Below are positions 9,999 to 30,317 of a DNA stretch of 64,000 nt, one piece after another. The translations under genes and the position numbers were made by a program. Source of the stretch: a phage. The DNA is taken from the NCBI GenBank assembly GCA_033648345.1, contig GCA_033648345.1_4121.1. One strand, written 5' to 3'. How positions within the stretch are numbered: the stretch's first letter is position 1; each line of letters starts with the position of its first letter. The notes under the pieces were generated by a model that was not told the origin of the DNA, did no database searches, and saw only the letters and a list, made by a program, of their open reading frames with translations.

Positions 9999-10026
9999 TT
10001 GCAAACTAAGTTTAACGGCGTATAAT
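9999..10026 (+). promoter_or_regulatory. Class-I early promoter
   Basis: AAAGTACTTGCAA-16-TATAAT-GTTTTACATC consensus. Confidence 0.6.
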
Positions 10027-10081
10027 GTTTTACATCGAGAGCGGGAACACTTCCCGCTACATATTACGAGAGATTAAAACG

Positions 10082-10444
10082 ATGGCGACTCAAATCACTA
10101 AAATTATTGCTAACCTGGTTAACTTCCGCGACGAGATGAAAGGTCTTCCGGCTGAAACGGTAAAAATTCACATCGCAGCTTATCGGGAACTTATTGCAAT
10201 GTTGCCGCTTAAGCGTGAACAATACGCCGCGACCGTGATGCTTGATGCGATGATCCATAAGATGATCGCCAGTGATTTGACGATGGCGTATCAGTATATG
10301 GGTGAATTGTTCGCGGTGTATAGTAAACCAGTACCAGGAATGGAAAGTACAGAAGTATTACACGGTTTAAATTTAAAACAAGATGCATGGGATAATATGC
10401 CTCGTTTCCTGGTATGGGCTGACAGTGGCAAGATTTACGAATAA
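10082..10444 (+). CDS. Hypothetical early protein (120 aa)
   Basis: Start moved from track ORF 10025 to Met after the 5'UTR hairpin GCGGGAACACTTCCCGC. Confidence 0.65.
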   Translation: MATQITKIIANLVNFRDEMKGLPAETVKIHIAAYRELIAMLPLKREQYAATVMLDAMIHKMIASDLTMAYQYMGELFAVYSKPVPGMESTEVLHGLNLKQDAWDNMPRFLVWADSGKIYE

Positions 10445-10458
10445 GTTTTAGAAAGTAC

Positions 10459-10486
10459 TTGCAAACTAAGTTTAAAAGCGTATAAT
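10459..10486 (+). promoter_or_regulatory. Class-I early promoter
   Basis: TTGCAA-16-TATAAT. Confidence 0.6.
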
Positions 10487-10536
10487 GTTTTACATCAGGT
10501 GGGGAATAGTTCCCCACTATATAAGAGGATTAAAAA

Positions 10537-10776
10537 ATGGCTAAATCAAAAATGTTCTTAGGTCACAAAAACAAAACTCATTGGAATGTAAGCCTTTGGA
10601 TTAATAACGATGAGTCATTGTACCGGTTGGCCCTGGACTTTATTGCCGCCAATACTAATCGCAATGATGCGGCCCGTCATATGATGTTATTTTTAGAACA
10701 GACTGGACAAGATAAAACACCGGACGGATTCAAATATAGCACTACTGCGATCCGTGCGGCGATGGTTGGAATGTAA
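10537..10776 (+). CDS. Hypothetical early protein; paralog of 12576..12815
   Basis: Shared GHKNKTxWNVSLWINN...TPDGFKYSTTAIRAAMVGM; SD AAGAGGA. Confidence 0.7.
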   Translation: MAKSKMFLGHKNKTHWNVSLWINNDESLYRLALDFIAANTNRNDAARHMMLFLEQTGQDKTPDGFKYSTTAIRAAMVGM

Positions 10777-10861
10777 TAGAATTTATTTAAAGTACTATCG
10801 CAAAAAATGATAGTACTTTATAATAGTGTTTTATTCATACACCAACGATAAGGGCAACAGC

Positions 10862-11128
10862 ATGAATATTAAGTATTTTGCGACGCGTGAACAAGCTCGG
10901 ATCGCCGCACGCCAGGACGGGGCAACGTTTAAAGATATGGGCGTACAATCGGAACGTGGTAAACGTTGGGCCATTATAAAGCGTAGTACCGCCAGATCAT
11001 TACAGTACTGGTTAGCGGCGTTAAAAAGTCCCGATAGTGTATCGCGTCGAGTGGTAGAAATAAAGCTCGACCGAAAGGGCAACCGCGTGACCGTGTACCG
11101 TACTAAAAAGATTGCAGTACTTGAATAA
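10862..11128 (+). CDS. Hypothetical early protein; paralog of 23885..24280
   Basis: Shared KYFATREQARIAARQDGATFKDMG and DRKGNRVTVY motifs; start moved to MNIKYF. Confidence 0.65.
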   Translation: MNIKYFATREQARIAARQDGATFKDMGVQSERGKRWAIIKRSTARSLQYWLAALKSPDSVSRRVVEIKLDRKGNRVTVYRTKKIAVLE

Positions 11129-11135
11129 AAAGTAC

Positions 11136-11163
11136 TTGCAAACTATGTTTAATGGCGTATAAT
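11136..11163 (+). promoter_or_regulatory. Class-I early promoter
   Basis: TTGCAA-16-TATAAT. Confidence 0.6.
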
Positions 11164-11215
11164 GTTTTACATCGAGAGCGGGAACACTTCCCGCCTATAA
11201 CCTGGAGTAATAAAA

Positions 11216-11446
11216 ATGACTAATATGTATATGACTGAAGTTAAAACCGTAAAAGATACTACCACGAATAAAACTACTTACTTACAGCGGATCTGCGGTG
11301 TATGGCAACGTATCAGCAAATCAAAGTACTTTAAATTAACATCATATGCAAACCGTTCGGATTCATTCAGTACTGAAATAAAAGGTAATAAAGTACACCA
11401 ATACGGCACTTATTATTATTATAGCCTGGACGCGATTGCAGTATAA
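11216..11446 (+). CDS. Hypothetical early protein (76 aa)
   Basis: ORF after promoter, hairpin and SD GGAGT. Confidence 0.6.
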   Translation: MTNMYMTEVKTVKDTTTNKTTYLQRICGVWQRISKSKYFKLTSYANRSDSFSTEIKGNKVHQYGTYYYYSLDAIAV

Positions 11447-11476
11447 GCAGTTTACAAATCTTTACAATTGCCGGTA

Positions 11477-11505
11477 TTGACTTATTTTGTCAGTACTGGC
11501 ATAAT
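11477..11505 (+). promoter_or_regulatory. Promoter of convergent pair (candidate small-RNA promoter)
   Basis: TTGACT-17-CATAAT; no ORF downstream, followed by the conserved CCCA-GGGTGC leader motif. Confidence 0.5.
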
Positions 11506-11620
11506 GTATTCATTGGCAGATAAGCCGTAGCCCATAGGGTGCGGGAGTGTATCTATAGAAAAAGTAGTTTATTACAGTTACAATTGTGCACCCGGTGGGT
11601 TAGCTGTTGTCATGGGGTAT

Positions 11621-11649
11621 ATTATGCCAGTACTTGATAATGCTGTCAA
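11621..11649 (-). promoter_or_regulatory. Convergent minus-strand promoter
   Basis: Reverse complement reads TTGACA-17-CATAAT and faces the promoter at 11477. Confidence 0.5.
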
Positions 11650-11695
11650 TACTTTTTTTTACTATTCAGTACTGAAAACTATTTTTAAAAAGTAC

Positions 11696-11723
11696 TTGCA
11701 AACTATGTTTAAAGGCGTATAAT
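11696..11723 (+). promoter_or_regulatory. Class-I early promoter (P1 of tandem pair)
   Basis: TTGCAA-16-TATAAT followed by structured leader ACATCAGGACGGGGAACG... Confidence 0.55.
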
Positions 11724-11813
11724 GTTTTACATCAGGACGGGGAACGAAATAAGTAACTCCCCGTTAAGTAGCCCAGGAGTAAGGCACACGAAAAACTCCC
11801 CTGATAAAATAGT

Positions 11814-11841
11814 TTGACAAATGTTTTTAAAAGCGTATAAT
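11814..11841 (+). promoter_or_regulatory. Promoter P2 of tandem pair
   Basis: TTGACA-16-TATAAT. Confidence 0.55.
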
Positions 11842-11873
11842 ACTTACATCAACTACTGAATGAGGGTTACAAA

Positions 11874-12485
11874 ATGAAAACTATCACTACTACTACTTTC
11901 GTTATGGATTTTTCTGAATTGAACGCAGAACAAAAAACGTCAGCTATCGAACTGGTTCGGGAACGTGAAAAAAACTCAAACGACAATTATTTTTCTGAAA
12001 GTGAAATTGAATACTATAAAGAAACAGTACTACCGGAATATGGCATTAATGACGCTGAAATACAATTCAGTGGTTTTTGGTCCCAGGGTGACGGTGCATC
12101 AATCAGTACTGACCACGTTGACGGTGTGAAGTTTTTACGCAAGGTAAGAGCATTAACTAAGTATCGCTCAATCCGTCACTTGCTGAATGAAGATGATTTG
12201 GCGATGAGTGTAAAGCGTTCTCATTCTTTGTACTTGCATGAGAATACTGTAAGCGGGTACATTGAATCGGCTTACACTGATTTAACCGCAAAACAAGAAA
12301 CGTTAGTTAATGAGCTTGAGGAACTACTCACTGAAACTATTCGTGAATTATCCCGCAAGTTGTACCGTGATTTAGAGAATGCATATGAGGATCAATTCAC
12401 TACTGAAAACATCGTATCACTGATTGAGGGTAACGAATATCAATTCAATGTTATTGATGGCGTAGTAGAATCAATCGAATATTAA
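11874..12485 (+). CDS. Hypothetical acidic early protein (203 aa)
   Basis: ORF with upstream tandem promoters; SD GAGGG. Confidence 0.7.
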   Translation: MKTITTTTFVMDFSELNAEQKTSAIELVREREKNSNDNYFSESEIEYYKETVLPEYGINDAEIQFSGFWSQGDGASISTDHVDGVKFLRKVRALTKYRSIRHLLNEDDLAMSVKRSHSLYLHENTVSGYIESAYTDLTAKQETLVNELEELLTETIRELSRKLYRDLENAYEDQFTTENIVSLIEGNEYQFNVIDGVVESIEY

Positions 12486-12497
12486 TTCAAAAAGTAC

Positions 12498-12525
12498 TTG
12501 CAAACTAAGTTTAAAAGCGTATAAT
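12498..12525 (+). promoter_or_regulatory. Class-I early promoter
   Basis: TTGCAA-16-TATAAT. Confidence 0.6.
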
Positions 12526-12575
12526 ACTTTATATCGAGGCGGGGAGTGGTTCCCCGCTCAAACGAGGATTTAAAA

Positions 12576-12815
12576 ATGGCTAGTACTAAAACTTATAACG
12601 GACACAAAAACAAAACTCAATGGAATGTAAGCCTTTGGATTAATAACGGTGAGTCATTGTATCGGCTTGCACAAAGTTGTATCGCACAAAGTAGAACTAA
12701 AGATATTGCAGCGGAATGCATGTACCGCAGATTAAAAGCCAACGGTACTACTACAACGCCGGACGGCTTTAAGTATAGCACTACTGCGATCCGTGCTGCA
12801 ATGGTTGGAATGTAA
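12576..12815 (+). CDS. Hypothetical early protein; paralog of 10537..10776
   Basis: Start moved to MASTKTYNGHK after hairpin GGCGGGGAGTGGTTCCCCGC. Confidence 0.7.
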   Translation: MASTKTYNGHKNKTQWNVSLWINNGESLYRLAQSCIAQSRTKDIAAECMYRRLKANGTTTTPDGFKYSTTAIRAAMVGM

Positions 12816-12873
12816 TATTCAGTACTGTAACAATGGCGGGGAATGGTTCCCGCCTTTATTGAGGGTTTATCTA

Positions 12874-13134
12874 ATGAGTAAAGTAATTAACTATACAGTA
12901 CTAAGCAAGTCATTGTCTATCAGTGAATGCACCGATGGTTTTTGGCTTTATGATGAAACGCGTGGAATGAATTTAGCTATGCGTGTAAAAACTGCTGAGG
13001 CGGCGTATCTTGAGGCACTGGAATACTACCAGGAACGTTTAACGGAAGTAGAAGAAGATTATAAAAGCCTCAAAGCGAAAGTAGATCATTTCGTCGGTCA
13101 ATTCATCGAGGAAGACGACGATAAACAATACTGA
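12874..13134 (+). CDS. Hypothetical early protein (86 aa)
   Basis: Start moved to MSKVINY after hairpin GGCGGGGAATGGTTCCCGCC and SD GAGGG. Confidence 0.6.
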   Translation: MSKVINYTVLSKSLSISECTDGFWLYDETRGMNLAMRVKTAEAAYLEALEYYQERLTEVEEDYKSLKAKVDHFVGQFIEEDDDKQY

Positions 13135-13222
13135 AAAAAAGTACTTGCAATTAGTTTTCAGTACTGTATAATAGTTTACATCAAGTGGAGAAATGGTTCT
13201 CCCTGGTAATGAGGAAAATAAA

Positions 13223-13444
13223 ATGGCTAATATCACTACTCTTTCCCAACTGGAAGCACTGGTTAAATCTATGCGGGAACATGCCGACAAAATCGGCGTA
13301 CAAGATCCAGCCGTTTGCTTCTGCGACGAATTGAATGATGATACCCTTGTAATAGCAGAAGTCCAGGACGTTTCTAACTATTCCTCGCGTTACACTGGCG
13401 GCGTAGCAAATAAAGGCGACTTCTGTTTATACCTTACAAAATAA
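13223..13444 (+). CDS. Hypothetical early protein (73 aa)
   Basis: Start moved to MANITT after hairpin and SD. Confidence 0.6.
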   Translation: MANITTLSQLEALVKSMREHADKIGVQDPAVCFCDELNDDTLVIAEVQDVSNYSSRYTGGVANKGDFCLYLTK

Positions 13445-13449
13445 CAACG

Positions 13450-13480
13450 CGGGGAGATAATAACTCCCCGTTACTTTTTC
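13450..13480 (+). terminator. Rho-independent terminator
   Basis: CGGGGAGATAATAACTCCCCG followed by TTACTTTTT. Confidence 0.6.
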
Positions 13481-13550
13481 AGTACTGAATCATTTAATAG
13501 ACGGATCTATGCACCCGGTGGGTTAGTGACTGTTTCGTCTTGATGTAGTA

Positions 13551-13579
13551 ATTATGCCAGTACTGGATGCAGTTGTCAA
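13551..13579 (-). promoter_or_regulatory. Minus-strand promoter with conserved leader (candidate small RNA)
   Basis: Reverse complement TTGACA-17-CATAAT followed by ACATCAAGACG...CCCACCGGGTGCAT; no ORF. Confidence 0.45.
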
Positions 13580-13612
13580 CAACTATTTTTCAAATACTTT
13601 TTATTAAAATAC

Positions 13613-13640
13613 TTGCAATTAGTTTTTAAACGCGTATAAT
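13613..13640 (+). promoter_or_regulatory. Class-I early promoter
   Basis: TTGCAA-16-TATAAT. Confidence 0.55.
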
Positions 13641-13687
13641 GTTTTGCATAGGGGGAGCGGTTCCCCTGGTAACTAAGGAATAATAAA

Positions 13688-13924
13688 ATGCTTGAACAAA
13701 TCAAATCAACGTCTGCGAATGTAACGGGAACGGTAGCACACTTTACTAGTGATGAATCGCGGGGCGTTCCCTATTGTGCTGTACATGTAAACACTGATGG
13801 CAACTACTGGTTTACGGTTTACGGATCATATTCATTTGGACGGCCTGGGCATCAAAAAATTCTGGATAAAGTACAACCAACGGGTAAAAATATCACTGCC
13901 GAAATGTTTTATAAAAAATCATAA
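13688..13924 (+). CDS. Hypothetical early protein (78 aa)
   Basis: Hairpin GGGGGAGCGGTTCCCC then SD AAGGAA. Confidence 0.65.
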   Translation: MLEQIKSTSANVTGTVAHFTSDESRGVPYCAVHVNTDGNYWFTVYGSYSFGRPGHQKILDKVQPTGKNITAEMFYKKS

Positions 13925-13929
13925 AGTAC

Positions 13930-13957
13930 TTGATAATAGTTTTTAGTACTGTATAAT
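13930..13957 (+). promoter_or_regulatory. Early promoter
   Basis: TTGATA-16-TATAAT. Confidence 0.5.
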
Positions 13958-14008
13958 ATTTTACATCGCAAGGGGGAGCGGTTCCCCCTAGTAACTAAGG
14001 ATAATCAA

Positions 14009-14308
14009 ATGAAAATTGCAATCATCGCCCTGGCTTTATCTGTTTCCTCTTTCGCTGTTAATGCGTCATTAGATGTAAGTAGTGAAAAATTCATTCAGTG
14101 CACTGTTGCAATGACCGATGAAAGAACTGGCGAGATTGTATTAAAGGATTTAGAGATCCAGCCGGAAGCATTTAAAAACGGCCCGTTCCATGAAGAAGAC
14201 GAAAACGGTAGCACAACAATTTATTATGATGCCAGTACTAAACGCGGTTCGGTCACTGTAATGGATACTGAGAAAGTAACTCATACTGGCGTTATTAATT
14301 GCCGTTGA
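14009..14308 (+). CDS. Small secreted/periplasmic protein
   Basis: N-terminal signal-peptide-like MKIAIIALALSVSSFAVNA. Confidence 0.65.
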   Translation: MKIAIIALALSVSSFAVNASLDVSSEKFIQCTVAMTDERTGEIVLKDLEIQPEAFKNGPFHEEDENGSTTIYYDASTKRGSVTVMDTEKVTHTGVINCR

Positions 14309-14329
14309 TAGATACTACGGGGTAACATC

Positions 14330-14560
14330 ATGACTAAGCGAATTGTTTTACTTAACGAAAGCAGTACTACACAACTACTTAACGCCGTGCATTATGATAT
14401 TGAAACGAGCGTTAATCTTATCAGTACTGTAGTACTGTTGGACACTGGAAAGGTCGCCAATGATAAAGCGATTGCAGGTATATTAACGGATCTTGAGCCT
14501 GGTAGCAGTGCACCAATAACGTTAAATGGTAAAGTGTTTAATATTTTACTCACTGATTAA
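14330..14560 (+). CDS. Hypothetical protein (76 aa)
   Basis: ORF closely following upstream gene. Confidence 0.55.
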   Translation: MTKRIVLLNESSTTQLLNAVHYDIETSVNLISTVVLLDTGKVANDKAIAGILTDLEPGSSAPITLNGKVFNILLTD

Positions 14561-14566
14561 GTACAT

Positions 14567-14594
14567 AGCCCACCTGGTGGGCTTTTTTGTTTTT
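14567..14594 (+). terminator. Rho-independent terminator
   Basis: AGCCCACC-TGGTGGGCT followed by TTTTTTGTTTTTG. Confidence 0.75.
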
Positions 14595-14642
14595 GTAGTA
14601 TCGTAGTACTGAGATACTTTGAAAATAGTTTTAAAAAAGTAG

Positions 14643-14670
14643 TTGACATTACCGCAGAAAAGCGTAGAAT
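14643..14670 (+). promoter_or_regulatory. Early promoter
   Basis: TTGACA-16-TAGAAT followed by conserved leader ACATCAAGACGGGGAGC. Confidence 0.5.
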
Positions 14671-14793
14671 GTATTACATCAAGACGGGGAGCACTAAGTA
14701 GACCGCCAGTAAGTCGAACGAAAAACTGGACACGTCGAGAAAACTTTGATACACTAATAAACGTAAACTAAACTTTAATTGAGGATTTATAAA

Positions 14794-15276
14794 ATGGCTA
14801 ATGTAAAATCATTCATCAAAGCACTGGTAGCAAATGAAACTAACGTCGCGGCAGAGATCCTGGCTGAACTGGATAACGATACCATGAAAGCGGTACGCAA
14901 TAATTTTAACATCGCGTACAGTACTGCGAAAGAACTACAAGCAAATAAAGCAGCAGAGATCGAGGCAGCAAAGGCGGCCCGTGAAGCAGAACTACAAGCA
15001 ACAATTGAAAGTATTCAGGCGGCAGTAGTTGGATTGGATCTGGAAGTAGTTACAGAGATGGCACAAAAAGCCCTGGCGAAAAAGTACGGGGAAGACAAGC
15101 CAGAAGTAAAAGCCAAAAAATGGATTCAAGAACGTGTAGCGGTAGTACTTGATAATGGGGAAGAATATCTGATTCCGGTGCGTGGTAACTGCATTGCTGT
15201 AGTACTGGATGCGATTAACTCCAGCGGTATGACTCGCGAGGAATGGATCGAAGCTCATCGCAAAGTGGAAGCATAA
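14794..15276 (+). CDS. Hypothetical protein with Ala/Glu-rich helical segment (160 aa)
   Basis: Start moved to MANVKSF after SD GAGGA. Confidence 0.65.
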   Translation: MANVKSFIKALVANETNVAAEILAELDNDTMKAVRNNFNIAYSTAKELQANKAAEIEAAKAAREAELQATIESIQAAVVGLDLEVVTEMAQKALAKKYGEDKPEVKAKKWIQERVAVVLDNGEEYLIPVRGNCIAVVLDAINSSGMTREEWIEAHRKVEA

Positions 15277-15297
15277 CAATTAAAGTACTGAATCACT

Positions 15298-15325
15298 AGC
15301 CCACTGTATAAGTGGGCTTTTTTGT
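15298..15325 (+). terminator. Rho-independent terminator
   Basis: AGCCCAC-TGTATAA-GTGGGCT followed by TTTTTTG. Confidence 0.75.
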
Positions 15326-15477
15326 GTTTATCGTTTACCAGGCCACCAGCACCGCCTAGAATCGATTCTAACGCATTAAACTGATTATCTGATGCATCGC
15401 CCTAGCTGGTGGAGTTAAGGCCGTTAGAATGCGATTTAGAGCGTTTAAAGTATTTTGCAAAAAGTAATAAAAAGTAC

Positions 15478-15505
15478 TTGCACGATTCAGAGATTAGCGT
15501 ATAAT
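15478..15505 (+). promoter_or_regulatory. Class-I early promoter
   Basis: TTGCAC-16-TATAAT. Confidence 0.5.
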
Positions 15506-15550
15506 GTTTTACATCAAGGCGAAACACCTTAACTAACTGAGGATATAAAG

Positions 15551-15703
15551 ATGAATACTTATGAACTGGATTGTTTCACTATGCAAGTAATGTTAGTATG
15601 CAGTAAAAAAGAATGGTCATCAAAGGAATTTAAAGCAGTTATTGCGTGTGCAAAACACGGCAAGACTATCAATGAAACGGCATCAATCATTGATAAACTT
15701 TAA
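15551..15703 (+). CDS. Small hypothetical protein (50 aa, absent from ORF track)
   Basis: Manual translation MNTYELDCFTMQ... with SD GAGGA. Confidence 0.45.
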   Translation: MNTYELDCFTMQVMLVCSKKEWSSKEFKAVIACAKHGKTINETASIIDKL

Positions 15704-15711
15704 AAAATAGT

Positions 15712-15740
15712 TTGACAATAGTTTTAAGTACTGACATAAT
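15712..15740 (+). promoter_or_regulatory. Class-II early promoter
   Basis: TTGACA-17-CATAAT with AGTACTG before the -10. Confidence 0.6.
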
Positions 15741-15773
15741 ACATACATCAACTACTGAATAGGAATCAAAACA

Positions 15774-16001
15774 ATGGCTATCGTAATCACTCGCGTATCT
15801 GGTACTACTGGCAATTCTTCTACTGTTGCTGTAATTACTAATAAGAAAGGTGCGGAATTACATTTTGCAATGAATACCTGGGCGGTGAATGAGTTCGGTC
15901 AGTGGGCTAGTGTAGAATACATTGAAACCTATCAAGTGCCAACCATTAGCTTAACGGATCTCGGCGTAGATCGTATCTTATGCCTGGATGAATTAAATTA
16001 A
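15774..16001 (+). CDS. Hypothetical early protein (75 aa)
   Basis: ORF after promoter; SD AGGAA. Confidence 0.65.
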   Translation: MAIVITRVSGTTGNSSTVAVITNKKGAELHFAMNTWAVNEFGQWASVEYIETYQVPTISLTDLGVDRILCLDELN

Positions 16002-16008
16002 AAAAGTA

Positions 16009-16037
16009 CTTGCAAAGTAAATCAAATAAAGTATAAT
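16009..16037 (+). promoter_or_regulatory. Class-I early promoter
   Basis: TTGCAA-17-TATAAT; hairpin GGGGAGAAATGGTTCTCCCC at 16050-16069. Confidence 0.6.
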
Positions 16038-16086
16038 ACATTACATCAAGGGGAGAAATGGTTCTCCCCACTACAAGGAAACTAAA

Positions 16087-16230
16087 ATGAAAACTTGTCA
16101 ATGTGGTCAGAAATCTATTACGGGTTTAAAGCGGGGCGTTGCTCTTTGCCAGTACCATTATAATTTACAAGTATGGGGTAAAGAATGGGCCGACCAGGTG
16201 GAAGCAGCAAAGAAAGCAAAAAGTAAGTAA
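16087..16230 (+). CDS. Small Cys-containing (zinc-ribbon-like) protein (47 aa, absent from ORF track)
   Basis: Manual translation MKTCQCGQKS...CQYH with SD AAGGAA. Confidence 0.5.
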   Translation: MKTCQCGQKSITGLKRGVALCQYHYNLQVWGKEWADQVEAAKKAKSK

Positions 16231-16311
16231 AAATATTATCACAGTACTATTGACATAGTTTGATAGTACTGGCATAATAGATTTTATCAAGACAACTAAG
16301 AGGAAACAATA
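16221..16311 (+). repeat. Duplicated ~91-bp promoter cassette (copy 1)
   Basis: Near-identical to 16515..16605; contains TTGACA-17-CATAAT and SD AAGAGGAAA. Confidence 0.8.
16250..16278 (+). promoter_or_regulatory. Class-II early promoter
   Basis: TTGACA-17-CATAAT. Confidence 0.6.
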
Positions 16312-23379: not shown

Positions 23380-23381
23380 GT

Positions 23382-23789: not shown

Positions 23790-23811
23790 TAGAATCCATT
23801 TAAAGTACTAT

Positions 23812-23840
23812 TTGACATTGCCCAGATAGTACTTTATAAT
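23812..23840 (+). promoter_or_regulatory. Class-II early promoter
   Basis: TTGACA-17-TATAAT. Confidence 0.6.
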
Positions 23841-23884
23841 AGACTCTAACTTGTAGTACTAACTCAACTAATAGGATGTATACC

Positions 23885-24280
23885 ATGATTACTAAATTCT
23901 ACGCTACCCGTGAAGCTGCCCGTATTGTTGCACGCGAGGAAGGAGCAGCATTTAAAGACATGGGAACGACAGCACCGAAAGGTCAACGCTGGGCCGTACA
24001 GTTCAAAGAAATCTCTGATATTGTGAATTCACCTGAGCCAGTACTGACAGCAGCAGAACTAAAACGAGCGGATATGCTGGCGGCAATACTTGACGCACAA
24101 GATGAGTTTATCGCTGATTCTGATATCAAAGTACAGGTAAACCACACCGCATGGACTCACGCGGATCACCTGGCAAACCTTAAGCGTCCAAGTGAACTGA
24201 TTCGCAACCAGAAAGAGATCCGACATGATCGTAAGGGTAATCGTGTAACAGTATACAGTAAACGCCGCCAGGTTATCTAA
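23885..24280 (+). CDS. Hypothetical protein; paralog of 10862..11128
   Basis: Start moved to MITKFYATREAARIVAREEG. Confidence 0.65.
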   Translation: MITKFYATREAARIVAREEGAAFKDMGTTAPKGQRWAVQFKEISDIVNSPEPVLTAAELKRADMLAAILDAQDEFIADSDIKVQVNHTAWTHADHLANLKRPSELIRNQKEIRHDRKGNRVTVYSKRRQVI

Positions 24281-24302
24281 TAACTTGCAGTACTAACAAC
24301 AC

Positions 24303-24328
24303 GGCGGGATCAGTTCCCGCCTTTTTTA
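24303..24328 (+). terminator. Rho-independent terminator
   Basis: GGCGGGATCAGTTCCCGCC followed by TTTTTT. Confidence 0.75.
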
Positions 24329-24341
24329 TAGGACAAACAAA

Positions 24342-24596
24342 ATGATTAAGGTTCAACTATATAAAGATAACATCTTACGGGTACACTATAAAGCACCGAA
24401 GAGAATCATCACAAAGGCCGTACAGCTTGCTAATGAGTTTATTAATGGTAACCTATTACCGAGGAAGTTAAGCAACGGGAAACTGCGTGTAATCGACGTG
24501 GACACTAACAACAGGATAGTAATCGAGAACACAGGAAAGATAAACCTTTATGAGCATCAACAATACAATAAGAAAATAAAACTAATATCACGTTGA
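24342..24596 (+). CDS. Hypothetical protein (84 aa)
   Basis: ORF with SD GGACAAACAAA. Confidence 0.55.
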   Translation: MIKVQLYKDNILRVHYKAPKRIITKAVQLANEFINGNLLPRKLSNGKLRVIDVDTNNRIVIENTGKINLYEHQQYNKKIKLISR

Positions 24597-24621
24597 CAGT
24601 ACTCAATTGTTTTAGTATTAT
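24593..24621 (+). promoter_or_regulatory. Promoter (duplicated cassette, copy 1)
   Basis: TTGACA-17-TATTAT; cassette repeated at 24869. Confidence 0.5.
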
Positions 24622-24649
24622 GTACACATACCAACACGGGAGAAACAAA

Positions 24650-24868
24650 ATGAAATTATCTAAAATCGAAAAGAAAACTATTGATGAAGCAGTTAAGCAC
24701 GGTTATACCTTTCGTAATGATTCACATTTTACCAATTATCAACAAGGGTATCGTACTATTAAAAAACTTATTGACAAAGGTTTATTAGTTGAAGTCAATA
24801 ACGGCAATGGCATTGAGTATCAACCAACACAGGACGCATTTTATTTTAAGAAATATAATATTATCTAA
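24650..24868 (+). CDS. Hypothetical protein (72 aa)
   Basis: Start moved to MKLSKIEKK after SD GGGAGAAA. Confidence 0.6.
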   Translation: MKLSKIEKKTIDEAVKHGYTFRNDSHFTNYQQGYRTIKKLIDKGLLVEVNNGNGIEYQPTQDAFYFKKYNII

Positions 24869-24898
24869 TTGACAGTACTCAAATGTTTTAGTACTATA
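24869..24898 (+). promoter_or_regulatory. Promoter (duplicated cassette, copy 2)
   Basis: TTGACA-18-TACTAT. Confidence 0.45.
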
Positions 24899-24926
24899 TG
24901 TACATACCAACACGGGGGAAAACAAA

Positions 24927-25169
24927 ATGATTACTTTAGAAAAACGTATCAAAGAAACTACATCGCTGGTGGAATTGTTAACAGTACTCAAATGTAAAAC
25001 AACACCATTCAGCACGCCGGACTTTATTAATATGGTTGATGTTAACGGTCGTTATCGCATTGCAGTAGAACATGGAACAGCGAAAGTATTCAGTACTAAA
25101 AACACTAAGGAAGTGATTCACGCGGTTAGTGTGAAAAAAGTGGTTGCCATTGATAGTAAAGTACTGTAA
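24927..25169 (+). CDS. Hypothetical protein (80 aa)
   Basis: ORF after duplicated promoter cassette. Confidence 0.6.
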   Translation: MITLEKRIKETTSLVELLTVLKCKTTPFSTPDFINMVDVNGRYRIAVEHGTAKVFSTKNTKEVIHAVSVKKVVAIDSKVL

Positions 25170-25200
25170 TATAGTTTCATTAACTCAAGGAGTAAATGCA

Positions 25201-25785
25201 ATGCGTAATTATACTAAATTCATCCGTACACTGTCAGAAATGGAAACCAACAAAGAGATCCTTTCAGCTTGTCGGTTAGCTGGCCTGGAGATCATCGGTG
25301 CTGGTTCTTCCCGTATAGTATTCGCTTTAAATGATCGGTTAGTGATTAAGGTCGCGAATTGTGATGCGGGTGTAGAACAAAATGAAACTGAATGTAAGGT
25401 ATGGAATTTTTTAGACTATGACCGCCCTCAGTTGAAACAGTACTTTGCAAAGGTGCATATGCATTTATGCGATCCTGATAATATGTTTATCGTTATGGAT
25501 CGGTTGAGTACTGCAAGCAAAGGCAGTGTGAAGCACGTTAACGCGTGCAATGAATTAAAGTACAATATTAAACGTAATGCAATCGAACGCCAGCACCGCT
25601 TTGCTGATGCACTACAACACGTTGATGATACATTATCAACACTAACGATAAGAGATATCAGAAAACAGAATATCGGCCAGGATCGTAATGGCCTTATTAA
25701 AGTACTTGATTACGGTTTAACCAGCAATATCTGGAATCAGTACTATAAAAAGCGTGATGTGGCAGCAAGTAAAGTAACACGATAA
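25201..25785 (+). CDS. Protein-kinase-like protein (Ser/Thr kinase fold motifs)
   Basis: Gly-rich loop IGAGSSRIV plus Lys VIKVA; catalytic-loop-like RDIRKQNIG; DYG in place of DFG. Start moved to MRNYTKF after SD AAGGAG. Confidence 0.5.
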   Translation: MRNYTKFIRTLSEMETNKEILSACRLAGLEIIGAGSSRIVFALNDRLVIKVANCDAGVEQNETECKVWNFLDYDRPQLKQYFAKVHMHLCDPDNMFIVMDRLSTASKGSVKHVNACNELKYNIKRNAIERQHRFADALQHVDDTLSTLTIRDIRKQNIGQDRNGLIKVLDYGLTSNIWNQYYKKRDVAASKVTR

Positions 25786-25796
25786 AAAAAGATTAA

Positions 25797-25833
25797 AAAA
25801 GGGATTGACTCCGGTCAGTCCCTTTGCTATTAT
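25797..25833 (+). terminator. Terminator hairpin with embedded promoter-like TTGACT
   Basis: Same element as 22519. Confidence 0.7.
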
Positions 25834-25925
25834 ATATTCATTGAGAGATAACTCACTGACCCATAGGGTGCGGAAGTGTATCTATTATATAAGCATTCAG
25901 TACTGAAAACTATTTTAAAAAAGTA

Positions 25926-25954
25926 CTTGCATTGTACTTAGAATCAAGTATAAT
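25926..25954 (+). promoter_or_regulatory. Class-I early promoter
   Basis: TTGCAT-17-TATAAT. Confidence 0.6.
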
Positions 25955-26008
25955 GTTTTATATCGAGAGGGGGAAATGGTTCTCCCTGGTACATTAAGGA
26001 ATAAAATC

Positions 26009-26416
26009 ATGACTACTACTAATCAAGCTCGGTCCATCGCCAACGATAAAAATCATGCTGCAATGGTCGCTGGTTACATTGAAGCTATGCAATTCAGTAC
26101 TGTACACAATGAGAACGGCGAATACCTGGAAGATTATGAATTATCAGAGCAAGCCCATCAAGCGGCAGTGATTGCATGTTCACGTTTCCTTGCTGTACAT
26201 GGTGAAGATATGGAAACAGTACAAAAACACCATAATCCTGATTATACTTATAGTCATGCAGGTCATGATCTCTTTCTTACTCGCGAAGGTCACGGCACTG
26301 GTTTTTGGGATCGTGATATCGGTCACTATGATGATATATTCACTAAGTACTGCGAAGAAATCAACGTTTGCGATCCCTATGTAGGCGATGATAATCTAAT
26401 CTATATGGGCGAATAA
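26009..26416 (+). CDS. Hypothetical His-rich protein (135 aa)
   Basis: Start moved to MTTTNQ after hairpin and SD AAGGAA. Confidence 0.65.
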   Translation: MTTTNQARSIANDKNHAAMVAGYIEAMQFSTVHNENGEYLEDYELSEQAHQAAVIACSRFLAVHGEDMETVQKHHNPDYTYSHAGHDLFLTREGHGTGFWDRDIGHYDDIFTKYCEEINVCDPYVGDDNLIYMGE

Positions 26417-26422
26417 AAGTAT

Positions 26423-26450
26423 TTGACAAAGTATATCAGTACTGTATAAT
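26423..26450 (+). promoter_or_regulatory. Class-II early promoter
   Basis: TTGACA-16-TATAAT. Confidence 0.6.
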
Positions 26451-26504
26451 AGTTTACATCAAGGGGAGAATAGTTCTCCCCCACCAATAAAAGGAAACAA
26501 AATT

Positions 26505-26777
26505 ATGTCCAGCTACTCCGCTACTATGATCATTAAAGATATGAACGGTAATCCTACTTCTGCTGGTGGATCATTTGGAAACATTAATTTAGATGGTCGG
26601 TTATCCATGCAATCAGCCATCGATGCAGCGAAAGAAGTTTTTAAGAATGAATGTACTGTAAGTAAGCTGGATTATATGGGATTCGCTATCGAAAAAACTA
26701 ATCGTTTTGTGAACTACAAAAATCCACTGATGATCGATACTAACCTGAAAGCAAACGAAGTGGGGTACTTATTATGA
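26505..26777 (+). CDS. Hypothetical protein (90 aa)
   Basis: ORF after hairpin GGGGAGAATAGTTCTCCCCC. Confidence 0.65.
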   Translation: MSSYSATMIIKDMNGNPTSAGGSFGNINLDGRLSMQSAIDAAKEVFKNECTVSKLDYMGFAIEKTNRFVNYKNPLMIDTNLKANEVGYLL

Positions 26778-26965
26778 CAGTTGAAGAAGTTAAAAAAGTA
26801 CTGGCAGTACTACGCTATCATAATCATTGCAAGGTGAAGAATGATCCTGATTATCTCGATTCATCCCTGGAAGAGGATACACTACAAGCAATAAGCCATA
26901 TGCAAAAAATGCTTAAGCGTATGACCGAAAAGAATAGGCCGGACTATATCGGAAATAAAATTTAA
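26774..26965 (+). CDS. Hypothetical protein (63 aa)
   Basis: ATGA-coupled ORF. Confidence 0.55.
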   Translation: MTVEEVKKVLAVLRYHNHCKVKNDPDYLDSSLEEDTLQAISHMQKMLKRMTEKNRPDYIGNKI

Positions 26966-26972
26966 AAAGTAC

Positions 26973-27000
26973 TTGCATTGTAGTTAGATTAACGTATAAT
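26973..27000 (+). promoter_or_regulatory. Class-I early promoter
   Basis: TTGCAT-16-TATAAT. Confidence 0.6.
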
Positions 27001-27052
27001 GTTTTATATCGAGAGGGGGAAATGGTTTCCCCTCAAGTCCAGGAGATACACC

Positions 27053-27316
27053 ATGAACACTATCGAAATCACTATCAATGCACACGTATACGACAACGTA
27101 GTACTGCAAACTACTATGACCGCTAATGATACCAGTACTTTGCGGAATACTGTTATTAGTGCCGTATGTGCTGCAATCGGTGATGTATCCCTGGAAAATG
27201 CAGAACATATCAACAACGGTTTCACTATGTGCAAGCGTGATAACGCAAAACATATCATCGTGGAAGGTTACGGCGGTGTAGAATTTAATGTTTATATGAA
27301 AAAAGTACTTGCATAA
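27053..27316 (+). CDS. Hypothetical protein (87 aa)
   Basis: Start moved to MNTIEIT after hairpin GAGGGGGAAATGGTTTCCCCTC and SD AGGAGA. Confidence 0.65.
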   Translation: MNTIEITINAHVYDNVVLQTTMTANDTSTLRNTVISAVCAAIGDVSLENAEHINNGFTMCKRDNAKHIIVEGYGGVEFNVYMKKVLA

Positions 27317-27335
27317 TAACTAAAACAAAGTATAA
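27308..27335 (+). promoter_or_regulatory. Class-I early promoter
   Basis: TTGCAT-16-TATAAT. Confidence 0.55.
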
Positions 27336-27383
27336 TGTTTTGCATAGGGGGAGATATCCTCCCCCACTAAAAGGAGTAATAAA

Positions 27384-27608
27384 ATGGCTAACTTTGATGA
27401 ACTGATGCGGGAAGTAGCTAACCTGGCAGAAGAGAAGAAATCATTCGATTCTATCTATAACACCGCTCACCGTGATTCAGTACTGGCATGTAACCAGGAT
27501 CAAAAAGATGAACTAATCGCCACCTATCATGAAGCATGGAAGTACTACCGACAATGGGAGAAAGAAGAAAGTGAGTCTACCATTGACGGCCTCAATAATC
27601 TAATCTAA
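27384..27608 (+). CDS. Hypothetical acidic protein (74 aa)
   Basis: ORF after hairpin GGGGGAGATATCCTCCCCC and SD AAGGAG. Confidence 0.65.
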   Translation: MANFDELMREVANLAEEKKSFDSIYNTAHRDSVLACNQDQKDELIATYHEAWKYYRQWEKEESESTIDGLNNLI

Positions 27609-27684
27609 AAGTTTTATTTCAGTACTATTGACATAGCTTGATAGTACTGATGTAATAACTTTACTAACTACAAGGGGAAACATA

Positions 27685-27942
27685 ATGGAACAGTTCACAC
27701 AATATCGGGTAAATCCACAAGCTATGGCCTACGTAGAAGACCATAAAACGTTACCAGTACTGCAACCAGTTAAAGGCCGTATCTATCGTGGCCTTGCCTG
27801 GGATACGGCCCAGGATGGATATAAAACCGTCGCCGTGGGGATGTATTGCGGGAATGGTGAATGGTTTGATCCTAGCAATCCGATTGCACTTGACAGTACT
27901 GAAAAAATGAAATGGGCCGACTACATCGAAGATATTTCATAA
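27685..27942 (+). CDS. Hypothetical protein (85 aa)
   Basis: ORF with upstream TTGACA promoter-like element. Confidence 0.6.
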   Translation: MEQFTQYRVNPQAMAYVEDHKTLPVLQPVKGRIYRGLAWDTAQDGYKTVAVGMYCGNGEWFDPSNPIALDSTEKMKWADYIEDIS

Positions 27943-27949
27943 AAACTAT

Positions 27950-27977
27950 TTGACAGTACTAACCAGTAATGTATAAT
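27950..27977 (+). promoter_or_regulatory. Class-II early promoter
   Basis: TTGACA-16-TATAAT. Confidence 0.6.
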
Positions 27978-28032
27978 GTTTTACATAGAGCGGGGGAATA
28001 GTTCTCCCGCCAATAGTTTGGAGTTAAACATT

Positions 28033-28233
28033 ATGTCTATCGCTATCGCCCTGGTTGAAGTACTGAAAGAAGCTAAAGCCAACCAGATCGACGTAAAGAT
28101 CCAGGAACTACAAAACGGCTTAATCGGCTGTACTTGTACCGCTGGTGGAGCGGCAGACTATCGAGAACACGAATCACTCGAATCACTGGTTCGGTATCTT
28201 ACCATGATCGTTGATGATTGGAGAATCATCTAA
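28033..28233 (+). CDS. Hypothetical protein (66 aa)
   Basis: Start moved to MSIAIALVEV after hairpin GCGGGGGAATAGTTCTCCCGC and SD GGAG. Confidence 0.6.
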   Translation: MSIAIALVEVLKEAKANQIDVKIQELQNGLIGCTCTAGGAADYREHESLESLVRYLTMIVDDWRII

Positions 28234-28247
28234 CAAAAAAAGAATAA

Positions 28248-28284
28248 AAAAGGGATTGACTCCGGTCAGTCCCTTTGCTATTAT
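28248..28284 (+). terminator. Terminator hairpin with embedded promoter-like TTGACT
   Basis: Same element as 22519. Confidence 0.7.
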
Positions 28285-28480
28285 ATACGCATAGACAAAA
28301 ACTAGCCCACAGGGTGCATAGGTGTATCTAAAATATATAGTTAATAACGGTGAGTAACTATCTGCTGGTGGAGTGAAAACTATTAATAAAAAAAACTATT
28401 GACAAAGTATATCAGTACTGCAATAATGTATCTCGTAGGGCGGCAATGGTGCGACGGCCCACAAAGTTAGGAGATTCAAA

Positions 28481-28813
28481 ATGAGTACTTCAATCGCTAT
28501 CGTTAAAGCTTTCATCCGTACCAATGTTTCATCTGTATTCATCGACGGTCTGGATCGGGAAGTAGAATACTCAATCATTATCGCACAGACTGCAAACGGT
28601 GCTCGGTATATCCTTAATAATAGTGAAGCAAATCACTACTACTTCACTAAAGCTACTGGCTTTAAACGCATCGATGCTGACGTAGTATACACTAAGATGA
28701 ATAAGCTGGTAGACAAGATTAACGCGAAAGGTACTATCGATTTACAGTACTGGACCGAAACCGATCCAGAATATGGATCTCACCGCTACCTGAATCCAGG
28801 TATTAAAATGTAA
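28481..28813 (+). CDS. Hypothetical protein (110 aa)
   Basis: ORF with SD AGGAGA. Confidence 0.65.
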   Translation: MSTSIAIVKAFIRTNVSSVFIDGLDREVEYSIIIAQTANGARYILNNSEANHYYFTKATGFKRIDADVVYTKMNKLVDKINAKGTIDLQYWTETDPEYGSHRYLNPGIKM

Positions 28814-28820
28814 AAAGTAC

Positions 28821-28848
28821 TTGCATAGTACTTAGATTCATGTATAAT
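28821..28848 (+). promoter_or_regulatory. Class-I early promoter
   Basis: TTGCAT-16-TATAAT. Confidence 0.6.
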
Positions 28849-28902
28849 GTTTTACATAGAGAGGGGGAAATGGTTCTCCCTCCTAAATTAAGGAGTTTTA
28901 TC

Positions 28903-29304
28903 ATGACCTTCTCAATCACTTCCTTCGCTGACGTTTTAGTACTGGCTCGGACTTTTGGTAAAGCTGGCCTTGAGCACGCTGTAAGTAATGGTCATATGCA
29001 CCCTGAATATTGCCGCATCATTGGAAGCTGTAAACGTTGGGCTGTGTCCCGTAACATTGAGATTGAAAACTTCAATGACGGTAACAACGAATATACAGTT
29101 GATGCAGTATTCGAAGTCGTTGATCTCGGCGGTATCTATAACACTAACCTGAATGATGTGCGTATCGTTCGCACGGGGTTCGGTGCTTATGATGTATCTA
29201 TCCGTGAAGCTATGGACAAGGGATACATTAGCAAGGACCAGTTAGCTTACATCATGCAGCAAACTAAGGAACGTAACGAAGCACGCACTATCTTAGGACT
29301 GTAA
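28903..29304 (+). CDS. Hypothetical protein (133 aa)
   Basis: Start moved to MTFSITSF after hairpin and SD AAGGAG. Confidence 0.65.
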   Translation: MTFSITSFADVLVLARTFGKAGLEHAVSNGHMHPEYCRIIGSCKRWAVSRNIEIENFNDGNNEYTVDAVFEVVDLGGIYNTNLNDVRIVRTGFGAYDVSIREAMDKGYISKDQLAYIMQQTKERNEARTILGL

Positions 29305-29372
29305 GCGTTACACATCACCAAACATCATAGGCCGCCTTGTAGCGGCCTTAACTATATCAGGAGGGCATACAT

Positions 29373-29582
29373 ATGTTCTATACAGTATACAGCGTTCTAG
29401 GTACTATTGCAGGCGTACATGATAACGTCAATGATGCTATGCGTACAGTACTGCAACAGGTTCCACTAAAGCCTAAGACCATTAAGCAGATGACAGCACG
29501 ACTAACCAGGGCGACGGCTGGCGTGGAAGTATGGCAGGACTATGGGGATACACAGATAATCGTAAGCGTAACGAAGGATTAA
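29373..29582 (+). CDS. Hypothetical protein (69 aa)
   Basis: ORF with SD AGGAGGG. Confidence 0.6.
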   Translation: MFYTVYSVLGTIAGVHDNVNDAMRTVLQQVPLKPKTIKQMTARLTRATAGVEVWQDYGDTQIIVSVTKD

Positions 29583-29865
29583 TGCGTAAAAGGATTTAGT
29601 ACTGAATCATAAAAAAGTCAAGGCATTTTTAAACTTCAGCGTTAAAAAAATGCATAGGTAATCCCTTGACTTTTATGAATAAAAAGGGATTGGACTATGG
29701 CAAAATGCGTAGGGGGCTTAACTGCGGGTAACCTTAGCGACTTCGAAAAAAGGAGTGATAGGGGCTTGACTTTTTATATAATTCTGATAATATATAGTCT
29801 ATATTATATTTCATTCATATTTTATATGTTAGTTACATTAACTCAACATTAGAGGTCACAGAACT

Positions 29866-30231
29866 ATGAATCCATCATCTAATAAATGTGGTACTTCCTT
29901 TAATGTAGAATGGTTATTTTTTAAACCCACATCTACTATAAAATCATTCATTGCTGATATCACTGAAGCACCTGACACCCTTGTATCAGTTGTTAACAAC
30001 AATAACGAAATGGTATTTTCTATTGATGAAAATCAATATGCAGATATCTATTCATTGAGTCGTATAAAAAACTTAGTTGTACTGTCCGAGAAAGCGTTCG
30101 CAAAAGAAGCGAAGAAATGGGATTTTAAACTTCCTATTGAATTGGTACGTGAAATACAAAAATTGGGATGTACTACTATTGAGAATTGTAAAGACTCACG
30201 TGCTACTGGGAATATTTCATTTGAAGTATAA
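29866..30231 (+). CDS. Hypothetical AT-rich protein (121 aa)
   Basis: Track ORF; SD AGAGG; first gene of the AT-rich right-hand zone. Confidence 0.55.
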   Translation: MNPSSNKCGTSFNVEWLFFKPTSTIKSFIADITEAPDTLVSVVNNNNEMVFSIDENQYADIYSLSRIKNLVVLSEKAFAKEAKKWDFKLPIELVREIQKLGCTTIENCKDSRATGNISFEV

Positions 30232-30317
30232 TGCATTTATATGAACAAAACATCTTGACATCATGCCTCACATGGGGTATGATGTTTTTTCACATATGAA
30301 CCTATGGATTTTATCCT

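Follow-up and report, generated by a model that had tools for sequence, protein, structure and literature searches.

Why should some 20 kb of a phage genome differ so clearly in base composition and codon usage from the DNA on either side of it? The question is raised by a stretch of 64,000 nucleotides of the phage contig GCA_033648345.1_4121.1 (hereafter the window). A preliminary description had pointed out an early block at 10082-29582, richer in G+C and in certain codons than the gene arrays flanking it, and had suggested either horizontally acquired modules of different ancestry or selection on early-gene translation. Here the block is identified by homology as the equivalent of the long direct terminal repeat (DTR) of a genus of jumbo coliphages, at window positions 8317-29734 (about 21.4 kb). 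We consider it probable that the repeat is a native early-gene compartment with a stable composition, shaped by the turnover of a pool of gene cassettes and by the context of the uninfected host, and neither a recent import nor the product of optimisation towards host codons.

According to megablast, the window belongs to Asteriusvirus, the 121Q/PBECO4 group of jumbo coliphages of about 350-385 kb, and its part between 40 and 60 kb is collinear with many members of the genus at 95-98% identity. At window position 8317 the sequence is identical to the first 25 nt of fEgEco12, with 95% identity across 600 nt, while the end of the fEgEco12 DTR (...GCGGGTAACCT/TAGCGACTTCG, the slash marking the end) falls on window position 29734; the termini of fEgEco12 have been established with PhageTerm and restriction digests (PMC13070987). 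The same span is covered at 95-97% identity by positions 1-21525 of vB_Ec-M-J, which are annotated in that record as a 21,525-bp direct terminal repeat. The block is in this way homologous, with matching ends, to a DTR that has been determined experimentally, and DTRs of about 20-21 kb have been reported for G17, Sharanji, fEgEco12 and vB_Ec-M-J (PMC6563267, PMC11895373, PMC13070987). Window positions 1-8316 match the unique DNA that precedes the right-hand DTR copy of vB_Ec-M-J, and the window would therefore derive from a permuted assembly in which the repeat has been collapsed; its DTR copy has unique DNA of the right genome end on one side and of the left end on the other, the layout to be expected when a circularly permuted assembly is collapsed. 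Because the window carries this one collapsed copy, we infer the duplication of the DTR at both genome ends of this isolate from homology. The block first described is real, but the domain is larger, starting at 8317 with a 1.7-kb non-coding leader and ending at 29734. The parts of the window on which the comparison is based are the following:

8317..29734, no strand assigned: equivalent of the DTR and entire compositional domain, placed by homology to the verified fEgEco12 termini and to the vB_Ec-M-J DTR
8317..10024, + strand: DTR leader, apparently non-coding; its features are a hairpin at the extreme end of the repeat (8321-8337), a perfect sigma70 promoter (8682-8709) and short direct repeats (about 9130-9215)
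10025..29582, + strand: block of putative early-gene cassettes with about 55 small open reading frames (ORFs) of a median of about 80 amino acids (aa), from ORF calls and promoter and hairpin scans
2967..7973, + strand: left flanking array of paralogs of about 60-70 aa in the unique right genome end, AT-rich, with a codon adaptation index (CAI) of 0.27
30318..36835, + strand: right flanking array, a 22-member family of proteins of about 75 aa whose genes overlap or abut (all-versus-all blastp clustering), with a G+C content (GC) of 0.329 and a CAI of 0.261
36272..64000, + strand: further paralog arrays encoding proteins of 100-200 aa (among them families with 9 and with 6 members), including the GC and CAI minimum of the genome

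The higher G+C content of the block is evident from 1-kb bins, with values of 0.35-0.41 over 9-30 kb; the bins on the left side give 0.32-0.36 and those on the right 0.29-0.35. Composition changes abruptly where the repeat starts and ends, and most genes take part in the shift. Gene calls are our own greedy ORFs throughout. On this basis the 55 DTR genes have a GC of 0.391 (0.466, 0.341 and 0.367 at the first, second and third codon positions; GC1, GC2 and GC3), against 0.323 (0.391, 0.270 and 0.309) for the 86 genes of the right arrays (Mann-Whitney, p = 3e-14 for GC and 1e-6 for GC3). CAI, for which the E. coli ribosomal-protein and elongation-factor genes served as reference, is 0.407 in the DTR and 0.290 in the right arrays, p values across the measures ranging from 1e-6 to 3e-14. 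As the shift touches all three codon positions, it involves more than codon choice. The codons CTG, CGT, GCG and CCG, named at the outset as typical of the block, are indeed enriched in the DTR relative to the arrays (17.1 vs 6.8, 19.8 vs 8.3, 13.1 vs 3.2 and 6.2 vs 2.1 per 1000, respectively). Among those ascribed to the arrays this applies to AAT, ATA and TTA, but not to AAA, which is more frequent in the block (55.6 vs 47.8 per 1000).

For comparison, the whole genome of the relative TH47 (352,450 bp, GC 0.351) was assembled and its DTR equivalent was set against 148 other windows of the same size. Mean gene GC3 is 0.380 in the DTR equivalent and 0.277±0.018 elsewhere (maximum 0.314), so that none of the 148 windows reaches it, and gene GC is 0.394, compared to a maximum of 0.385 in the other windows. 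The DTR is also the most deviant region in tetranucleotide signature, for all DNA as well as for coding sequence only (distance 0.28-0.31 vs a median of 0.10-0.14), and has the highest non-coding GC (0.356 vs 0.316±0.021). Its composition is thus atypical for the genome in which it resides, and the difference exceeds the variance of the rest of that genome, GC3 and tetranucleotides being the measures in which it is the top outlier. By CAI the DTR is no outlier in TH47, as 47 of the 148 other windows reach its value, and total GC was dropped as a measure of uniqueness: the region at 300-320 kb of TH47, with large genes, high GC1 and GC2 and low GC3, equals the DTR in this respect. That the contrast is merely produced by short genes, spurious ORF calls or repeated promoter cassettes is hardly credible. 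Short ORFs do show a somewhat raised GC3 everywhere (0.325 at 45-70 aa), some ORF starts were called wrongly, and the repetitive cassettes carry GC-rich hairpins. However, among length-matched genes (70-250 aa) GC3 remains 0.385-0.394 in the DTR against 0.268-0.289 elsewhere (p = 4e-4 to 1e-7), which rules out gene length as the source; the DTR still ranks first in the coding-only tetranucleotide comparison, which rules out the repetitive promoter cassettes as the source of the signature; raw sliding-window GC gives the same step, and the effect is reproduced in three other genomes.

The block is further distinguished by the way its genes are arranged. A typical unit consists of AAAAAGTAC-TTGCAA/TTGACA, a spacer of 16 nt, TATAAT, a hairpin in the 5'-untranslated region (5'-UTR; GGGGAGAA..TTCTCCCC), a Shine-Dalgarno (SD) sequence and ATG. 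Most ORFs of the block occupy a promoter unit of their own, and the median intergenic gap is 80 nt in the DTR compared to -4 nt in the arrays. In total 111 sigma70-like sites are present in the DTR, against 70±7.8 in shuffled sequences, and 13 sites are perfect (TTGACA-N16/17-TATAAT), all on the + strand, whereas the arrays show neither an excess of sigma70-like sites (112 vs 110.9 in shuffles) nor a perfect one, in line with the change of promoter types across the block boundary that had been described. At least 25 of the 55 DTR genes have a promoter matching at least 10 of the 12 consensus positions within 110 nt, and in 13 of these genes the 5' UTR also forms a hairpin with a folding energy of -7 kcal/mol or lower; at these thresholds the two features occur together in none of the genes of the flanks. 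The hairpins, mostly located downstream of the -10 box and without a U-run, look like 5' mRNA hairpins rather than terminators; terminator-like sites number 24 against 13.3 expected. Three entries illustrate the architecture:

19080..19340, + strand: example cassette with a perfect promoter (19080-19107), the 5'-UTR hairpin GGGGAGAATAGTTCTCCCC (UTR of 44 nt, minimum free energy -13.3 kcal/mol), an SD sequence and an ORF at 19158-19340
22520..22555, + strand: composite stem-loop/promoter AAAGGGATTGACTCCGGTCAGTCCCTTT-GCTATTATAT, with the -35 box within the stem
18517-18552, 22520-22555, 25798-25833 and 28249-28284: the four near-identical copies of this composite element, each with a 12-bp stem-loop AAAGGGATTGACTCCGGTCAGTCCCTTT that includes the -35 box and precedes a TATTAT -10 box

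The composite element recurs in the terminal repeat of the Klebsiella phage fENko-Kae01 (Kae01), upstream of a kinase gene. Host-type sigma70 promoters ahead of the genes, as found here, are one mark of an immediate-early class, and the term "early" used for the block is in keeping with its dense consensus promoters, one per gene, and with the early expression of the DTR genes of PA5oct by RNA-seq (PMC7318152).

The compartment has a GC3 of about 0.37-0.38, compared to about 0.28 in the rest of the genome, and two distant phages of other hosts reproduce the step. In Kae01, which has about 29% similarity to fEgEco12 (PMC13070987), GC falls from 0.36-0.39 to 0.32-0.34 exactly at the PhageTerm-defined end of the DTR, and the repeat shows a higher CAI inside (0.40 vs 0.32) and the same cassettes. 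In the Pseudomonas phage PA5oct most DTR genes were reported as early by RNA-seq, with TTGAC/TATAATA promoters (PMC7318152). Its early region has a GC of 0.388 and a GC3 of 0.367, compared to a GC3 of 0.24-0.25 in the adjacent arrays. The first 7 kb of the annotated PA5oct repeat, which is delimited by coverage only, form a tight AT-rich array (GC 0.28, GC3 0.24), and therefore composition would follow the early-gene class and not membership of the repeat. The Asteriusvirus-type DTRs as a whole (fEgEco12, vB_Ec-M-J, Sharanji and G17; Kae01; PA5oct) resemble the window block in position, in their length of about 21 kb, in terminus sequence and in their dozens of small, mostly uncharacterised genes (PMC13070987, PMC11895373, PMC6563267, PMC7318152). 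No mention of the repeat as an outlier in composition or codon usage was found by keyword in three of the published accounts of these DTRs, and neither "promoter" nor "codon" occurs in the publications on fEgEco12 and Sharanji. The compartment itself is already known, and so are the kinds of phenomena involved, namely codon differences between early and late genes (PMC5683454) and hyperplastic regions with promoter-early stem-loop (PeSL) cassettes.

PeSL cassettes have been described in the hyperplastic regions of T4-type phages (Arbiol et al. 2010, PMC2839356; Comeau et al. 2014, PMC4122927). By comparison of architecture, the DTR cassettes share with them an AT-rich upstream stretch, a sigma70 promoter, a GGGG...CCCC stem-loop, an SD sequence and small ORFan genes, as well as the concentration in the most variable part of the genome, and the exchange units of the DTR would be bounded by cassettes. 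The composite that characterises the PeSL type, in which small ORFan genes of a hypervariable region are separated by a sigma70 promoter with a G/C stem-loop and an SD sequence, is present in the DTR. Unlike in PeSL, the stem-loops are mostly situated in the 5' UTR after the -10 box and lack a U-run, with only four copies having the -35 box in the stem, and the cassettes fill one terminal repeat of 21 kb instead of being scattered across several regions. The DTR cassettes would be sites of recombination. A second parallel is provided by phage T5, the terminal repeat of which (about 10 kb) contains the pre-early genes and is transferred in a first step, the first-entering DNA being devoid of certain restriction sites. 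Both phages would have a large direct terminal repeat with the first-expressed take-over genes under strong host-type promoters, but in the DTR the avoidance of short palindromes (except GCGC) is weaker than elsewhere, unlike in T5, and two-step DNA entry is not known for the Asteriusvirus group. Temporal classes of genes also differ in synonymous codons in other phages, T4 being the classic case, in which late genes use codons read by phage tRNAs. As in such systems, the phage-tRNA codons ACA and AGA are rarest in the early set; unlike in them, the codons that distinguish the DTR do not track the optimal codons of the host, and it is in the paralog arrays, not in the large structural genes, that phage-tRNA codons are used most. 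Mioduser, Goz & Tuller 2017 (PMC5683454) documented that early phage genes differ from late ones in codon usage.

If the composition belongs to a native early-gene compartment, as we propose, the following course of events may be envisaged. Since the repeat would stand at both genome ends, the DTR genes would enter the cell first and in double dose. They would be transcribed by the unmodified host RNA polymerase before the sigma factor and the tRNAs of the phage become available; the group has been reported to encode an RpoD-like sigma factor of its own (PMC11895373). The composition would be kept by the mode of evolution of the compartment, a high-turnover pool of promoter-flanked cassettes that may be exchanged by recombination between related phages and, now and then, with the early regions (GC about 39%) of other large coliphages. 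These cassettes would have to function in an uninfected host, which fits their lower content of codons depending on phage tRNAs.

Selection on early-gene translation, one of the two explanations originally offered, would mean that immediate-early genes, relying on the host tRNA pool alone, adopt host-preferred codons, while later genes make use of phage tRNAs. This seems rather improbable, even though CAI is higher in the DTR than in the arrays here (0.41 vs 0.29) and in Kae01 (0.40 vs 0.32), GC-neutral moves such as ACA to ACT and AGA to CGT, together with more AAA and GAA, separate the DTR from the arrays, and early/late codon differences occur in about half of the phages studied (PMC5683454). 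The phage tRNAs of TH47 read ACA, AGA, AGY and AAY, and ACA and AGA are lowest in the DTR (ACA makes up 0.22 of the Thr codons in the DTR, compared to 0.35 in the remaining genome and 0.51 in the arrays; the corresponding shares of AGA among Arg codons are 0.13, 0.22 and 0.42). The contrast, however, is made up of two opposite deviations, an excess of G/C-ending codons in the DTR and a richness in AGA, ACA and ATA, with the lowest CAI, in the arrays. It is the arrays that deviate in host adaptation: they are poor in host-preferred codons (rho = -0.70 vs relative synonymous codon usage (RSCU) in highly expressed E. coli genes, p = 2e-5), whereas the fractions of CGT+CGC, ACT, AAA and GAA in the DTR equal those of the rest of the genome. 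The codons enriched in the DTR do not follow those optimal for the host, nor does its CAI stand above that of the rest (47 of 148 windows as above; residual p = 0.12). The gain among its G/C-ending codons is uncorrelated with the RSCU of highly expressed host genes (rho = -0.03): relative to the rest of the genome, CTG, CCG, GCG and GGC rise 3-fold, and the increase includes rare codons such as CGG (20-fold), CCC (4-fold), GGG and AGG, while GC1, GC2 and non-coding GC are raised too. Selection for host-optimal codons was therefore rejected as the main cause, CAI being no outlier and the correlation absent; what stands of the original suggestion is a weak sense related to tRNAs, the depletion of ACA and AGA. 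A bias associated with recombination, such as GC-biased gene conversion, by which repeats recombining in every cycle would be pushed up in G+C regardless of function, is unlikely in our judgement. It would account for the position of the step, which falls on the ends of the repeat both in the window and in Kae01, for the raised non-coding GC, for the rise of non-optimal G/C-ending codons and for the faster third-position divergence in the DTR (11.9% vs 7.2%). On the other hand, the annotated repeat of PA5oct starts with the 7-kb AT-rich array and only its RNA-seq-early part is GC-rich (the repeat being delimited by coverage), positions 1 and 2 show a GC-to-AT excess, and the gain is uneven, with CTC, GTC, GTG, GAC, TTC and TTG unchanged or lower in the DTR. 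This unevenness also ruled out a uniform drift to G/C.

The second original explanation has to be divided, as horizontally acquired modules of different ancestry are supported for single cassettes but not for the bulk of the block. As a single island taken up from the host, a prophage or another phage and retaining the composition of its donor, the block appears quite unlikely, and as a bulk event this reading is largely refuted. An island would agree with the atypical composition and tetranucleotide signature, with the better correlation of RSCU with E. coli (0.43 for the DTR, 0.18-0.24 for the rest of the genome), with the gene-sized pieces common to Stephanstirmvirinae and rV5-like phages, and with a gene content that varies strongly within the genus: the best relative covers 71% of the block compared to 100% of the arrays, and 13 of the 55 DTR genes are absent from TH47. 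Yet the compartment is not absent from relatives. It occurs with the same shift in Kae01 and PA5oct, the latter having the same architecture; 20 of the 55 DTR genes have homologues in Kae01, all inside the Kae01 repeat, and these conserved genes are as shifted in composition as the variable ones. Nor does the DTR lack resident signatures or show silent sites drifting to the resident composition. With substitutions polarised across three close genomes, 204 AT-to-GC and 222 GC-to-AT changes were counted at its third positions, corresponding to an equilibrium GC3 (GC3*) of 0.365 against 0.385 now; the silent sites of the DTR are at equilibrium, without decay toward the genome value, and the arrays are at an equilibrium of their own (GC3* 0.311 vs 0.305 now). 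The tetranucleotide GCGC, though abundant in E. coli and in the coliphage Justusliebigvirus muut, is missing from the GC-enriched 21 kb (0 vs about 29 expected) as it is genome-wide, and the enrichment of AGTACT is shared with the genome as well. The codon CGG is present in 32 of the 55 genes, so the shift is compartment-wide. Bulk foreign ancestry is thus unlikely because of the silent-site equilibrium, the equal shift of conserved and variable genes and the shared exclusion of GCGC. A host or prophage origin was also set aside, as megablast of the block against 5,426 E. coli genomes gave no match, no more sensitive or protein-level search having been made.

Single cassettes have nevertheless been exchanged. 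About 165 records from other phage genera contain sequences matching parts of the block, whereas the arrays match none outside the group, and the best of the shared segments is the following:

22673..23185, + strand: cassette common to an unrelated coliphage (promoter, gene 22833-23108 and next promoter), 94.6% identity over 518 bp with Justusliebigvirus muut

The segment spans promoter to promoter, which is compatible, in this one case, with cassette-mediated exchange. The early region of muut has the same architecture and a GC of 0.39; there the shared segment sits in a GCGC-free interval with the only two AGTACT sites of the locus, which suggests export from the DTR rather than import.

We tentatively raise, as a possibility that goes beyond the native compartment itself, that the DTR is a semi-autonomous compartment with its own substitutional equilibrium (GC3 about 0.37 vs about 0.28-0.31). 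The difference would be conserved in phages infecting E. coli, Klebsiella and Pseudomonas, and neither optimal-codon selection nor recent import would be the process that maintains it. Candidates for such a process are a cross-family "commons" of promoter-flanked early cassettes and a fixation bias linked to recombination and specific to the DTR region.

Several observations weigh against the compartment as we understand it. The difference in GC3* between DTR and arrays is borderline (z about 1.95, our estimate from the substitution counts). At codon positions 1 and 2 of the DTR there is a net excess of GC-to-AT changes (142 vs 99, p = 0.007), and therefore part of the extra GC would be held by protein-level selection or be slowly eroding. 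Any single foreign phage shares at most 6% of the block, so exchange with other genera is quantitatively small, and the total lack of GCGC indicates that DNA from phages containing this tetranucleotide is seldom taken up or is soon eliminated. Compared to the rest of the genome, AGA and ACA are depleted to a modest degree (z = -1.2 and -2.1, respectively). For this phage, terminal duplication and early expression would follow from what is known of its relatives, and some of the greedy ORF starts lie within TATAATG boxes.

An "island" of distinct composition in a phage can be something other than foreign DNA, and in the present case it probably marks the compartment of immediate-early host take-over. 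A scan of GC3 or tetranucleotides could locate the DTR and the early genes in Asteriusvirus-like assemblies that are collapsed and arbitrarily opened. Two effects that look alike are separated, GC3-rich early cassettes on the one hand and paralog arrays rich in phage-tRNA codons and poorly adapted to the host on the other, and the locus lends itself to studying how two parts of the same replicon can each keep an equilibrium composition of their own. In phage engineering, the cassettes may be of use as ready-made modules that supply a strong E. coli promoter together with a 5' UTR.

Among the gene products of the block, three gave informative matches to Pfam:

20509..20766, + strand: DksA/TraR-type C4 zinc-finger protein (PF01258, E = 3.9e-9, over the curated cut-off)
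20831..21187, + strand: GNAT acetyltransferase (PF00583, E = 4e-9)
25144..25785, + strand: kinase-like protein, a weak match (Pkinase, E = 0.005, under the curated cut-off)

These were the only informative ones, 17 of the 20 largest block proteins having no Pfam match above the curated cut-off. The DksA/TraR-type protein is 71% identical to the product of a gene in the Kae01 DTR and is a candidate for a take-over factor that binds RNA polymerase, while the Kae01 DTR homologue of the kinase-like protein has been annotated as "putative protein kinase". The recognisable products look like host take-over factors, and most DTR products are ORFans.

The DTR leader (8317-10024) has a GC of 0.37-0.40 and contains many CAGTACTG motifs. 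No convincing ORF was found in it, including behind the perfect promoter at 8682-8709. Its short direct repeats comprise GGCTAAACGGCTAGA and four copies of TGGGTGGC around 9130-9215. The stretch at 9623-9757 shows 88% conservation with Kae01 at the amino-acid level, well above the neighbouring genes, and may represent a non-coding RNA, an origin or a packaging signal. In the window no Rfam family was detected at gathering thresholds and no tRNAs were found.

The left array matches the sequence of vB_Ec-M-J directly upstream of the right DTR copy. Further to the left, at 478-2882 on the - strand, there are two paralogous genes of about 390 aa, the counterparts of which in vB_Ec-M-J are found in a five-gene run annotated as "regulator of chromosome condensation" (RCC1-like) and adjoining a virion structural protein. 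The arrays at 2967-7973 and 30318-64000 show the heaviest use of AGA and ACA, the codons of phage tRNA-Arg(TCT) and tRNA-Thr(TGT), and the lowest host CAI. Their low GC goes back to the amino acids that they encode, among which Ala, Arg, Gly and Pro are scarce, and not to GC3. At 53-87 kb of TH47, the counterpart of window 36272-64000, 20-kb GC reaches its minimum of 0.319 and CAI its lowest values of 0.28-0.29.

Third positions of the repeat diverge faster than those of the arrays among the three close relatives, AT/GC differences amounting to 11.9% and 7.2%, respectively (about 1.6-fold). Thirteen records labelled "Campylobacter phage" (about 140-146 kb; MG065656, MG065674, MG065690 and ten more) share genes of the early-cassette type at 81-89% nucleotide identity and are probably mislabelled rV5- or phAPEC8-like coliphages.

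GCGC is wholly absent from TH47, where 172 (Markov) or 329 (zero-order) copies are expected, and likewise from the window (54 expected), from 72 kb of vB_Ec-M-J (60 expected) and from 39 kb of Kae01 (40 expected); none of the 316 GCG trinucleotides of the window continues with C. In E. coli, muut and PA5oct the tetranucleotide occurs commonly, and the string was not found in those Asteriusvirus papers that were searched by keyword. The phages may lack it so as to escape a GCGC-specific restriction system or to be immune to a nuclease of their own. Six palindromic hexamers (CAGCTG, AGGCCT, AGCGCT, CCCGGG, CCGCGG and CGATCG) have no copy in the 352 kb of TH47, about 35 being expected for each of the first three, which looks like broad avoidance of restriction sites. 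AGTACT, the core of CAGTACTG, is among the top three over-represented hexamers in TH47 (917 copies, 7.7 times expectation) and is equally enriched in Kae01 (122 vs 6.4 expected). The window holds 286 copies, most densely at 8317-29734, where 10 kb of the repeat contain 61-75 of them, compared to about 20 elsewhere; the motif belongs to the promoter cassettes but is frequent within ORFs too. The observed-to-expected ratio of GATC is 1.18 in the repeat, compared to 0.51 genome-wide.

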